From a virus, in the IMG/VR virus record IMGVR_UViG_3300031555_003080, positions 49,285-113,284 of that record: a stretch of 64,000 nucleotides of DNA. One strand, written 5' to 3'. The position numbers were made by a program, and so were the translations under genes. The notes under the pieces are model-generated. The model saw only the letters and a list, made by a program, of their open reading frames with translations, made no database searches and had not been told where the DNA came from. Shown here piece by piece: positions 40,916 through 42,994 of the stretch. Positions within the stretch are counted from its first letter, which is position 1. Every line of letters begins with the position of its first letter.

Positions 40916-41554
40916 TTAAACTTGTGGAAAATCAGTTCCAAATCTTACAATATCTTGAAGCTCTGTAGTAGACGCTTCTATAATAACAAGTTTTTCACTA
41001 TCTGCTCGAACTTGATGAACCATTCCAGGAGGAATAATAATTGTCGTTCCTGGCTTAACCGGTCTTGCTCGACCGGCAATTATTGCAGTTCCAATACCTT
41101 CAACAATATGCCAAGTTTCATGTTTTTGTCTGTGTAATTGTTTAGAAATATTTTTTCCTTTTAAAATTTCCAATCTCTTAAAAGCATATTTATCTGTTTT
41201 TGCAAGTAAATACTCTTTTCCCCAGATTTTATCAATATGAGCTTGACTATCTATTTCAGGCTCCCACTGATAAATACTTATACCTTTATCATCAATATAT
41301 TTTAATCCTGCAGGTTTTCCGAACAGGAGAGTGTGATATTTAACTCCCCAGCGTTCAAGCTGTTCGGCAGTCACTTCACTCCAATCGATACCTGTTTCTG
41401 TTCCACGAGCAGTAAAAAGTACAATTTTATATCCTTCATCATACTTTTTATTTAATTTATCAATAATTTCTTGAATTGGTTTCGCTTGAGAATAATCTGA
41501 TTCTTGGGAACAAATAGTTCCGTCGATATCAAATATTAGTGTTCCCATTTCCAT
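40916..41554 (-). CDS. HAD-family phosphatase fused to a cupin (sugar-phosphate isomerase-like) domain
   Basis: 212 aa; HAD motif I FDIDGT; C-terminal cupin ..HETWHIVEGIGTAIIAG....PPGMVHQV. Confidence 0.5.
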   Translation of the reverse strand: MEMGTLIFDIDGTICSQESDYSQAKPIQEIIDKLNKKYDEGYKIVLFTARGTETGIDWSEVTAEQLERWGVKYHTLLFGKPAGLKYIDDKGISIYQWEPEIDSQAHIDKIWGKEYLLAKTDKYAFKRLEILKGKNISKQLHRQKHETWHIVEGIGTAIIAGRARPVKPGTTIIIPPGMVHQVRADSEKLVIIEASTTELQDIVRFGTDFPQV

Positions 41555-42291
41555 CTTGCGAACTCATATTCATGTTGTTCGTCGATATCGATTGTTTCTT
41601 CTGCTGGAATCTCAAGCAAACACAAATCTTCTTTCAGCATATAGCCATCTTCGATAAAATTATTCTTATTAAACACATGGAAACAGTGTGCGCACTGATA
41701 CCAAGGAGTAATTTCTTTAGTGGTTAATCTCTTATAGTCAATATAATTAACTGCATTAATTTCATCGTCCCAAAGCCAATTTTTAAATTGCTTTACAGTT
41801 GTTCCATATTCTTTACCGCTTTCGTCAAATTCCATAATCTTTGCAACGATAGTTTCACAAGATAAGAAAATAAGACAAGGATTTAAGAATACAAGATAGT
41901 CTTCTGGAACATCAAGGACATCTTTATAGATAAACTGGAGCGGACCTTCCGCTTCAACAGTAGCCTTTTCTCTATACTTAATTACTACATTTGGATATTT
42001 ATTTGCGATTTCAATTAAAGGTTCATCACAAATTAAAACATATGTAGGAATATTATAAGTTGTCGTGATATACTGTAGCTTTTGGCAACAAATATCAAAC
42101 ATACAAGTATCTCCAATGGGGAGAATTTGCTTATTTGGCAATCTATGACTGCCGAGACGAGCGGGTACAAAAATTCCGATGCTCTTATTCATATTTAATT
42201 CCTCCGTTTTCTCTTGTATAACGTCCACCTTTATTAGAACATTTATAGCAAGGAGAATTTGGTTCAAATTTTGCTTTCTTACAGTAATCAA
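41536..42291 (-). CDS. sugar-nucleotide cytidylyltransferase (CMP-Kdo/CMP-NeuAc synthetase family)
   Basis: 251 aa; GIFVPARLGSHRLPNKQILPIGDTCM matches the CTP_transf_3 N-terminal motif. Confidence 0.55.
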   Translation of the reverse strand: MITVRKQNLNQILLAINVLIKVDVIQEKTEELNMNKSIGIFVPARLGSHRLPNKQILPIGDTCMFDICCQKLQYITTTYNIPTYVLICDEPLIEIANKYPNVVIKYREKATVEAEGPLQFIYKDVLDVPEDYLVFLNPCLIFLSCETIVAKIMEFDESGKEYGTTVKQFKNWLWDDEINAVNYIDYKRLTTKEITPWYQCAHCFHVFNKNNFIEDGYMLKEDLCLLEIPAEETIDIDEQHEYEFARWKWEH

Positions 42292-42994
42292 TCATTTCCT
42301 CTCTCCTGGCTGAAGACAAGATTTCTTCGAGAGGCGTTTCATTGAGATCCCCAATAATATACAATTGATGTGCGTCAATATCACTGCGAATATTACAGCA
42401 AGGGGATATAGTTCCATCATAGTTAACTCCAATAAAATATAAAGGCTCGGTGCAAGCGTAATCTCTAATTGGTTCTTCTATTGGAAGTGAACCTCCTCTA
42501 TTGCCGGGAGTATAATTATCTTTCCAATCTACATAATAGAGAATTTTCATATTTTCATAATGGGCATATATAAAATTATTAACGATTTCATCAATTTCAC
42601 AATGCCAGCTATTTAATTTATCAACACAAAATTGCATTCCTCTATTATCATAATCCATGATAGAAAGTTCGTCAATTTGCAAATGATGAATTATATCAGA
42701 AGATAAAAAATCTCCATTAGTATTTGTTACCAAAGTGCAATTTGGAAGTTCTTGCTTGATATATTTACAAGCGTCATTAAGTGCATTTACATATGCAAGA
42801 GGCTCGTTATATCGAGAAAATGTAATATAGCCAGAATAATTCATATTTTTGAGAGATTGAATTAAATTCTTAAAAATATTTGCATCAATATAATTAGTGT
42901 TAGATTTTCTGTCAATAAAACTATTTGGACACCATACACATTTGCGATTACAATAAGACCATAATTCAAGCTCAACTAATCGTAAATTGTTCAA
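42185..42994 (-). CDS. radical-SAM-like protein
   Basis: 269 aa; N-terminal CNRKCVWC (Cx3Cx2C) cluster motif. Confidence 0.45.
   Translation of the reverse strand: MNNLRLVELELWSYCNRKCVWCPNSFIDRKSNTNYIDANIFKNLIQSLKNMNYSGYITFSRYNEPLAYVNALNDACKYIKQELPNCTLVTNTNGDFLSSDIIHHLQIDELSIMDYDNRGMQFCVDKLNSWHCEIDEIVNNFIYAHYENMKILYYVDWKDNYTPGNRGGSLPIEEPIRDYACTEPLYFIGVNYDGTISPCCNIRSDIDAHQLYIIGDLNETPLEEILSSARREEMIDYCKKAKFEPNSPCYKCSNKGGRYTRENGGIKYE

Follow-up and report, generated by a model that had tools for sequence, protein, structure and literature searches.

Three overlapping genes and their transcription signals

The DNA analysed here, referred to as the window, is a one-strand stretch of 64,000 nucleotides (nt) from a large uncultivated phage of Clostridia-type bacteria (positions 49,285 to 113,284 of IMG/VR virus record IMGVR_UViG_3300031555_003080). 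We examined a set of three genes at window positions 40916-42994, for which a reading made from the letters alone (the sequence-only reading) had proposed a module that builds an activated unusual sugar. Three overlapping open reading frames (ORFs) on the minus strand agree exactly with the coordinates of this flagged interval. They encode a radical-SAM protein related to BtrN, a cytidylyltransferase and a HAD-cupin fusion. The genes, domains and flanking signals, all on the minus strand, are as follows.

42994..42185, minus strand: BtrN-like radical-SAM gene, 269 amino acids (aa); TTG start 7 nt past the ribosome-binding site AAGGTGAG
42192..41536, minus strand: cytidylyltransferase gene, 218 aa; ATG start with GGAGG upstream
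41554..40916, minus strand: HAD-cupin fusion gene, 212 aa
41255..41554, minus strand: HAD phosphatase domain of the fusion, residues ~1-100; cap-less, with motifs I-IV intact
40916..41254, minus strand: cupin domain of the fusion, residues ~101-212; type II phosphomannose isomerase-like isomerase domain
43044-43016, minus strand: promoter-like site; TTGACT, 17-nt spacer, TATAAT and an extended -10 TG, with 11 of 12 hexamer matches
43092-43059, minus strand: upstream terminator-like hairpin; 15-pair stem followed by a T run, closing the preceding unit and insulating the cassette
40913-40890, minus strand: downstream intrinsic-terminator-like hairpin, beginning 3 nt past the HAD-cupin stop codon, with no NeuB gene beyond

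The radical-SAM and cytidylyltransferase genes overlap by 8 nt (ATGAATAA), and the cytidylyltransferase and HAD-cupin genes by 19 nt, in line with the co-orientation and translational coupling described in the sequence-only reading. The longer TTG-started version of the cytidylyltransferase ORF in the mechanically produced list is not the true start.

The promoter-like site lies 22 nt upstream of the radical-SAM start codon. Including this one, the window has 22 near-identical sites with the pattern TTGAYW-N14-TGNTATAAT, every one of them on the minus strand (22 exact matches, compared to 0.01 expected by chance). Because this promoter and the flanking hairpins bracket exactly three genes, the cassette is a self-contained transcription unit with the phage's standard host-type promoter; the three genes form a single, insulated, early-type unit. 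Promoters of this pattern often precede ATATATATAAGGTAAAGAAAG and drive many units, some of them within the tRNA region; other examples are at 2129-2157, 22370-22398, 30687-30715, 38351-38379 and 62083-62111 (minus strand).

Domain assignments of the three proteins

The radical-SAM protein carries the Cx3Cx2C motif (CNRKCVWC) on which its earlier recognition had been based, and C15, C19 and C22 were invariant in 17 family members. Pfam SPASM matched at 1.1e-10, above the gathering score, and Radical_SAM at 1e-4, below it. A profile of the 17 family members matched BtrN in the PDB with E=1e-32, over query residues 6-257 and BtrN residues 6-238. The AlphaFold2 model, with a predicted local distance difference test score (pLDDT) of 91, had BtrN (4M7T) as its best Foldseek match (E=2e-16, template modelling (TM) score 0.69/0.75), followed by anSME and then by the Twitch dehydrogenase SpeY. 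The auxiliary-cluster cysteines C181, C199, C249 and C252 aligned with BtrN C169, C187, C232 and C235; two further invariant cysteines, C123 and C200, are without a BtrN counterpart. The invariant R166 (in N-R-G-G-S-L) aligned with BtrN N151-R152-G153-G154, the NRGG motif in which R152 is the proposed base for the substrate hydroxyl.

The seven-Cys SPASM motif, which includes CX2CX5CX3C, was not found in this protein: C249-x2-C252 is present, with no CX5CX3C after it. This absence indicates a Twitch enzyme rather than a true SPASM enzyme, and the Pfam SPASM match reflects the Twitch half common to both. Fold and full-length homology are clear, and we therefore refine the earlier call to a predicted BtrN-type Twitch enzyme. 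A reading as a SPASM peptide maturase was ruled out by coverage and motif. An NCBIfam 'spiro-SPASM' match, considered as a hint of a cytidylyltransferase/radical-SAM fusion, was dropped; the fusions actually found were with glycosyltransferases.

These fusions occur in distant BtrN-like proteins of the representative library (P0424, P0446, P0462 and P0463), with glycosyltransferase domains of three types: GT2, GT8+GT2, and GT99+Capsule_synth. GT99 and Capsule_synth both comprise CMP-Kdo-dependent transferases. We counted 379 close homologues of the radical-SAM protein in public data, and a library-wide profile search returned 429 representative BtrN-like proteins at E<=1e-30. To our knowledge almost all that is known of the BtrN family comes from aminoglycoside pathways, and a family of this size goes far beyond what those pathways can account for. 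The links to CMP-sugar synthetases and the glycosyltransferase fusions suggest that its role in glycan biosynthesis is much broader.

The cytidylyltransferase matched CTP_transf_3 at 2.5e-7, above the gathering score and covering the P-loop only, and gave a weak full-length alignment with PseF. It did not reach the NCBIfam equivalog cut-offs for PseF (27.7 bits versus 205.7) or KdsB (27.4 versus 193). In its P-loop, PARLGSHRLPNK, P10, R12, S15, R17 and K21 were invariant, as compared with the CTP-binding motif PARxxSxRxPxK, and D202 and D204 of the C-terminal metal-binding DxD motif were invariant as well. The AlphaFold2 model (pLDDT 94.5) had CMP-Neu5Ac, CMP-Kdn or CMP-Pse synthetases as all of its top 16 PDB matches in Foldseek. 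The best TM score, 0.84/0.82, was to the CMP-Kdn synthetase 9T4Z, and CMP-Kdo synthetases ranked lower. These matches place the model in the overall fold of CMP-nonulosonate synthetases, with its dimerisation insert. We conclude that this is a divergent cytidylyltransferase with a predicted CMP-nonulosonate-synthetase fold and a putative substrate of that class. All 131 homologues in public data were more than 50% identical, which indicates a narrow clade.

In the HAD domain of the fusion protein, the residues of motifs I-IV (DxDxT, T/S, K, DD), namely D9, D11, T13, T48, K80, D88 and D89, were invariant in 16 sequences. The domain matched the TIGR01689 capsule-biosynthesis phosphatase model (4e-8), HAD-IIIA (4.5e-7) and phrog_1238 (8e-26), and in the PDB 9IQW (3e-9) and 1XPJ (3e-6). 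By these matches it is closest to the small EcbF/BcbF/1XPJ 'capsule biosynthesis phosphatase' group. Its presence in the cassette implies a phosphorylated substrate. The cupin domain conserves the metal-ligand pattern Q/H139, H141, E146, H180. It matched Cupin_2 (1.5e-9) and MannoseP_isomer (4e-8), both above the gathering score, and the GMP/PMI C-terminal region (2e-8); its score of 33.9 bits against PF01050 (gathering score 23.6) argues for membership among the type II phosphomannose isomerase (PMI)-like proteins.

There were 335 HAD-cupin homologues in public data. One distant fusion adjoins an HldE-like heptose kinase/nucleotidyltransferase and a transaldolase, a neighbourhood in keeping with an isomerase and a phosphatase that work as a pair on manno-sugar phosphates; this fusion plausibly replaces the GmhA isomerase and the GmhB phosphatase. 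In that locus (L060, 208-6414) it lies by an HldE-like PfkB/nucleotidyltransferase, a transaldolase and several methyltransferases. Because the L060 contig additionally codes for a zf-Sec23_Sec24 domain of eukaryote type, its origin may be a giant virus or a eukaryote.

Profile searches with CTP_transf_3, Radical_SAM/SPASM, Cupin_2 and HAD thus bore out every domain call of the sequence-only reading, with Radical_SAM itself below its gathering score. The HAD phosphatase-cupin fusion is backed by four agreeing models (Cupin_2, MannoseP_isomer, HAD-IIIA and the capsule phosphatase), and the CMP-sugar-type cytidylyltransferase by CTP_transf_3 together with the CMP-sialate-synthetase fold of its model.

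The full cassette in relatives and the trimmed window copy

Related loci were gathered by exact-protein look-ups, by a scan of 185,579 representative prokaryotic genomes and by a scan of IMG/VR, and gene order was taken from a tblastn survey. The scan of representative genomes yielded just 7 loci, in metagenome-assembled genomes of Bacillota/Clostridia and in one contig binned as Bacteroides. The IMG/VR scan yielded 36 loci, on contigs of up to 203 kb. About 27 non-redundant related loci, mainly on large phage contigs, share the cassette genes in the same order, which puts the gene set far beyond chance. Wherever the radical-SAM homologue was at least 37% identical and the flanks were long enough, the genes ran radical-SAM, cytidylyltransferase, [HAD], [cupin], NeuB; the exception is L033, where the order is rearranged. 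Some cassettes do without HAD, and some without the cupin. Many loci encode HAD as a fusion with the cupin, and L014 encodes it as a fusion with the cytidylyltransferase.

NeuB lies directly downstream in 24 of the ~27 non-redundant cassettes. It is a short form (~272 aa) that matches the N-acetylneuraminate synthase model TIGR03569 at 1e-66 to 1e-73 and ends before the C-terminal SAF domain. Many loci have one or two extra BtrN-like paralogues (~30% identical) just upstream. A partner protein of 230-350 aa with the motif NGTYWP...EGxHR and no Pfam domain was present in 20 of 28 clustered loci (the 27 related loci and the window). Its profile weakly matched ParB, SbnI, free serine kinase and Noc, all of the ParB/Srx fold (best E=0.002), and the partner could be a small-molecule kinase or some NTP-binding enzyme. 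In L004, L011 and L062, all close relatives, its gene immediately precedes the radical-SAM gene; examples of the partner gene are the following.

L001, 9315-10004: ParB/Srx-like partner
L004, 1505-2065: ParB/Srx-like partner
L011, 9358-10014: ParB/Srx-like partner
L062, 7644-8573: ParB/Srx-like partner

The full cassette of the relatives therefore has five parts: the ParB/Srx-like protein, the BtrN-like radical-SAM protein, the cytidylyltransferase, HAD and/or cupin, and the short NeuB. The synteny with NeuB and the CMP-sialate-synthetase fold together lend strong backing to the proposal of the sequence-only reading that the module makes an activated unusual sugar.

The surroundings of the cassette vary among relatives. 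It follows tail-fibre genes in the prophage tail region of an Anaerovoracaceae genome (L001) and again in L013, where a 1,099-aa GT1/GT2/methyltransferase protein is encoded nearby, and it lies beside a GT8 gene and a KdsA-like gene in L011. In L002 and L004, in-frame TAG codons occur inside the cassette genes and NeuB, and four of nine align with Gln, which indicates TAG-to-Gln recoding in the window's phage group.

A different role for the set, in which the radical-SAM protein would act like viperin on CTP or another nucleotide or the module would modify RNA or tRNA, takes its arguments from partial matches and from the window's gene neighbourhood. The NCBIfam prokaryotic viperin model matched residues 7-105 (4.4e-4; 19.5 bits versus a cut-off of 180), Foldseek returned partial viperin matches, and the HAD domain weakly matched polynucleotide kinase-phosphatase models; among the nearby genes are those for an RlaP-type nucleotidyltransferase, an RNA ligase and Thg1, as well as 37 tRNA genes. 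However, the viperins in Foldseek covered the radical-SAM core only (TM ~0.36), which leaves no full-length viperin membership, whereas BtrN matched over the full length including the Twitch cluster. The HAD domain scored 8e-26 against phrog_1238 compared to 2.8e-9 against the polynucleotide kinase family. In relatives, the cassette occupies another place in the genome, and its companion is NeuB rather than RNA genes. We find a viperin-like or RNA-modifying role hardly credible.

The window copy differs from the five-part cassette in content and in place. Neither NeuB (tblastn with the NeuB proteins of relatives) nor the ParB/Srx-like partner (hidden Markov model search) was found in the 64-kb window, and tblastn of the L011 KdsA-like protein, the GT8 protein and the L013 glycosyltransferase against the window gave no match. 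In the syntenic relatives L002 and L062 the cassette sits between a metallophosphatase gene and a cREC_REC gene; in the window it sits between an SLH/fibre-remnant region and a nucleotidyltransferase-metallophosphatase pair. The window cassette is thus a trimmed and moved version without both end genes. This refines the sequence-only reading: the copy is incomplete and is without the sugar-forming synthase of most relatives.

The NeuB-less layout is no accident of assembly, since it recurs on every contig that reaches past the HAD-cupin gene. An identical cytidylyltransferase was present on at least nine contigs, and those extending past the HAD-cupin gene (L054, L016, L055 and L017) all have a Cys-rich 104/107-aa gene next, never NeuB. 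This gene always comes after the NeuB-less cassette in the window's lineage. In the window it occupies 40505-40828, has its own promoter (40879-40851) and encodes a Cys-rich acidic protein of 104-107 aa with no family match. Two further lineages, L018 and L025, are without NeuB within the available flanks.

On the other side of the window cassette lies a trace of a fibre gene.

43096..43293, minus strand: 65-aa ORF, N-terminal stump of a 771-aa repeat-rich tail-fibre-like protein

Over 41 aa, this ORF is 88% identical to the N-terminus of the L054 gene at 1393-3708. The sister contig L054, which has the identical cytidylyltransferase, carries a block of fibre-like genes of ~8 kb (1393-9059) directly upstream of its radical-SAM gene, and L055 has another gene (272 aa) at the same site. 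The L054 block, the window stump and the L055 gene together point to a gain/loss hot spot beside the cassette.

Selection on the three window genes was read from dN/dS, the ratio of non-synonymous to synonymous substitution rates, and from synonymous/non-synonymous codon changes on the window branch.

Radical-SAM gene: dN/dS 0.22 versus L004 and 0.12 versus L002; window-branch changes 30/10
Cytidylyltransferase gene: dN/dS 0.03 versus L004 and 0.11 versus L002; window-branch changes 17/2
HAD-cupin gene: dN/dS 0.10 versus L004 and 0.10 versus L002; window-branch changes 17/7

The three window genes are under purifying selection, and their function has been retained in the lineage. This result, together with the layout on at least nine contigs, indicates that the window copy probably relies on a synthase encoded elsewhere.

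These data also bear on whether the window copy is a decaying remnant, its three remaining genes useless after loss of NeuB, the ParB/Srx-like gene and the fibre block. Such decay would explain why NeuB and the partner are missing from the window while the close relatives L004 and L062 keep the full five-gene set, and the truncated fibre gene alongside implies recent deletions at the site. However, the catalytic motifs are all intact, a consensus promoter and a terminator have been kept, synonymous changes on the window branch are far more numerous than non-synonymous ones, and the same layout is found on at least nine contigs, with L018 and L025 likewise without NeuB. We therefore regard decay as improbable.

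As for the rest of the window, the 7 kb of DNA around the cassette had no match among 50,697 phage records. The window encodes gyrase A and B, NAD-dependent ligase, ThyA, PhoH-PIN and a tail lysozyme/amidase. In its ThyA homologue (2643-3500), the Asn corresponding to E. coli N177 is retained but preceded by an unusual insert (TASGPGG), and Ala takes the place of the His after the catalytic Cys. The intervals 22736-26300 and 26588-37225 hold an NAD-salvage set (NAMPT-like, NAD synthase, NADAR and a macro-like protein) and an RNA-repair set (RNA ligase, Thg1-like, RNase T, YqeY, phosphoribosyltransferase and isochorismatase), and a protein with a vault MVP-shoulder domain is encoded at 30761-33202. 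Beyond the fibre stump lie the gene for a secreted SLH-domain protein (43685-45313, 542 aa, with an N-terminal signal sequence apparent by eye) and, adjoining it, the gene for a DUF2828/DUF7788 (TROVE-like) protein (45507-47072; phrog_850, 'RNA-binding protein'); this pair is conserved in L002 and L062. The 37 tRNA genes are on the minus strand at 48835-63895. They include an amber-suppressor-type tRNA(CUA) at 52416-52506 and a tRNA(UCA) at 61296-61369, and the array also encodes a fusion of an aldo/keto reductase with a ferredoxin-like 4Fe-4S dicluster domain (56601-57656), conceivably a redox partner or sugar reductase. In-frame TAG occurs in window ORFs at ~52515-53190 and 53337-53807, and there is none in the window cassette.

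Proposed pathway, known systems and biological meaning

We propose, with moderate confidence, that the three window genes form the conserved heart of a widespread phage cassette, one that would produce a CMP-activated nonulosonic (sialic-acid-like) acid, tailored by radical-SAM chemistry, for glycan decoration. The identity of the sugar, the radical-SAM reaction and the acceptor are what we infer; the sugar is possibly similar to 3-deoxy-D-glycero-D-galacto-non-2-ulosonic acid (KDN). In this pathway the cupin would turn a ketose phosphate into an aldose phosphate of manno configuration, such as mannose-6-P from fructose-6-P. NeuB, a family present in the relatives and a gene absent here, would condense the aldose phosphate with phosphoenolpyruvate to a 3-deoxy-ulosonate phosphate (KDN-9-P-like), the HAD domain would strip the terminal phosphate, and the cytidylyltransferase, with its computed fold and motifs, would form the CMP-sugar from this presumed substrate. 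The radical-SAM enzyme, whose homology is likewise computed, would abstract H at a carbinol carbon of the sugar to give a ketone, as BtrN does, or an epimer. A glycosyltransferase would then take the activated sugar, and the likeliest acceptors would be phage fibre or virion proteins or the envelope of the infected cell. With both NeuB and the ParB/Srx-like gene gone from the window copy, its phage would have to obtain the ulosonic acid or the synthase elsewhere, be it in the host or in a part of its own genome beyond the window.

Several observations weigh against this proposal. All three proteins fall below the NCBIfam equivalog cut-offs. No synthase or glycosyltransferase was found among the window ORFs screened (smaller ORFs and the genome beyond the window lay outside the screen), so window genes by themselves cannot sustain the proposed pathway. 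The cassette promoter is the host-type one of the neighbouring early and metabolic genes, which is unexpected for virion glycosylation; as a counterpoint, the cassette genes of relatives carry recoded in-frame TAG, and such recoding is usually tied to late genes. The radical-SAM reaction, its substrate and the sugar acceptor are entirely inferred. The KDN assignment of the cytidylyltransferase is weak. In the CMP-sialate synthetase PpNeuA the sugar-binding Gln110 (Q110) is strictly conserved across CMP-sialate synthetases (PMC12934254). Its equivalent here is an invariant Asn104, and the Kdn gate-keeper Arg196 of the PpNeuA C5 pocket is replaced by a nearly invariant Met185; both correspondences come from a low-identity alignment and are tentative.

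The comparison with known systems is closest for the KDN pathway of Bacteroides thetaiotaomicron and Prymnesium parvum, which consists of a KDN-9-P synthase of the NeuB family, a KDN-9-P phosphatase (HAD) and a CMP-KDN synthetase. The cassette has the same families and logic, with a NeuB-type synthase (in relatives), a HAD phosphatase and a cytidylyltransferase, and its PMI-like cupin would supply mannose-6-P. It differs in that its HAD belongs with the EcbF/BcbF/1XPJ small-HAD group rather than with the KdsC/YrbI group, its NeuB is SAF-less, the gate-keeper Arg has become Met and the conserved Gln has become Asn. A radical-SAM enzyme and a ParB/Srx-like protein have been added, and the window copy is without the synthase.

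The clusters for nonulosonic acid biosynthesis (nab), which make N-acetylneuraminic (Neu5Ac), legionaminic (Leg) and pseudaminic (Pse) acids, likewise place a NeuB-type synthase beside a CTP_transf_3 cytidylyltransferase. Their products serve flagellin, S-layer, capsule or lipopolysaccharide glycans. Unlike them, the cassette has no NeuC and none of the Pse/Leg-type dehydratases, aminotransferases and acetyltransferases; it has HAD, cupin and radical-SAM proteins instead, and is found on large phages and in prophage tail regions. The NeuB-family synthase by which a nab cluster is recognised is missing from the window and present in 24 of the ~27 relatives.

BtrN, the radical-SAM 2-deoxy-scyllo-inosamine dehydrogenase of butirosin biosynthesis, oxidises a carbinol to a ketone (PMC10337720). 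Like BtrN and SpeY, the cassette protein is a Twitch enzyme, and it shares with BtrN the Cx3Cx2C motif, the four-Cys Twitch cluster, the Arg aligned with R152 and a similar size (~250-270 aa). Their identity is just ~21-23%, and C123 and C200 are extra. No aminoglycoside or 2-deoxystreptamine genes were found near the cassette, and, unlike BtrN, its radical-SAM gene is always coupled to CMP-sugar synthetase and NeuB. NeoN, a homologue of BtrN, is a radical-SAM epimerase of neomycin biosynthesis.

The ADP-heptose pathway (GmhA, HldE, GmhB) also combines an isomerase and a HAD phosphatase on manno-configured sugar phosphates. The cassette differs in that it has neither the kinase nor the adenylyltransferase, and its nucleotidyltransferase is of the CMP-ulosonate type.

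The NeuB-less trio might instead make some other CMP-linked product, with a host metabolite or a manno-configured sugar phosphate as its direct substrate. Alternatively, it might re-tailor a nonulosonic acid made by the host, such as the Pse or Leg of flagellin or S-layer, to change the host surface. Elsewhere the HAD-cupin pair is found without NeuB, in a heptose setting; three lineages have kept cassettes that lack NeuB; a promoter of early type would suit host takeover or remodelling of the surface; and the neighbouring secreted SLH protein targets the cell wall. However, the fold and DxD motif of the cytidylyltransferase are typical of activators of 2-keto-3-deoxy-ulosonates, and the window proteins are 71-95% identical to those of NeuB-bearing L004, which gives no indication of a change of substrate. 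Taken together, we judge these two variants unlikely.

The sequence-only reading had left two destinations for the sugar, DNA hypermodification and glycan decoration. The fibre and glycosyltransferase neighbours and the radical-SAM fusions to glycosyltransferases favour the second, and we found nothing that links the module to DNA modification. The case for the first, in which the activated sugar would glycosylate a modified base, starts from the phage DNA-arabinosylation modules of RB69 and DLP3, which combine a 1XPJ-like small HAD sugar-phosphate phosphatase with a nucleotidyltransferase (PMC13326640). The cassette resembles these in being phage-encoded, in pairing a small HAD of the same type with a nucleotidyltransferase and in making an activated unusual sugar, and the window has a ThyA homologue and many DNA-metabolism genes. 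The arabinosylation modules differ in having a dCMP-modifying ThyA homologue, DNA glycosyltransferases and arabinose, whereas the cassette has NeuB, radical-SAM and a CMP-sialate-type synthetase. The window ThyA homologue is 38 kb from the cassette and retains the Asn that characterises dUMP enzymes. No DNA-modifying partner adjoins the cassette in the window or the related loci (parts of the window and the genome beyond it lay outside the screen), and none of the ~27 loci links it to a DNA glycosyltransferase, base hydroxymethylase or kinase. The conserved partners are instead NeuB and fibre or glycosyltransferase genes, and the distant radical-SAM homologues are fused to glycosyltransferases of polysaccharide type. 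We know of no report of a nonulosonic acid on DNA, and consider this destination highly improbable.

Going beyond the proposed glycan-decoration cassette, we can put forward a more detailed picture, tentatively and as one joint claim that we regard as possible and would not expect to hold in every part. A mobile cassette in large phages of Clostridia-type hosts would make an undescribed nonulosonic (or longer-chain) acid. One to three BtrN-like enzymes, assisted by the ParB/Srx-fold enzyme, would oxidise or epimerise the skeleton of this acid. The sugar would glycosylate the phage's own fibres or re-dress the infected cell, and NeuB-less versions would hijack the sialic-acid-like sugars of the host.

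Taken singly, BtrN, the CMP-sialate synthetases and the nonulosonic acid clusters are familiar, and we found no paper that describes their combination. What appears new is the combination, mainly on large phages, of a BtrN-like enzyme obligatorily coupled to a divergent CMP-nonulosonate synthetase, together with a SAF-less NeuB, a small HAD, a PMI-like cupin and a ParB/Srx-fold protein. As the window copy is truncated, there is less to learn from the window locus alone. Sialic-acid-like sugars govern recognition at microbial surfaces, including phage receptors, immune evasion and the function of flagellin and S-layers. If the proposal is true, this widespread cassette would represent new nonulosonic-acid enzymology, with a radical-SAM tailoring step and a ParB/Srx-fold partner, and would give phages of the gut and of anaerobes a new route to decorate their virions or remodel their hosts.

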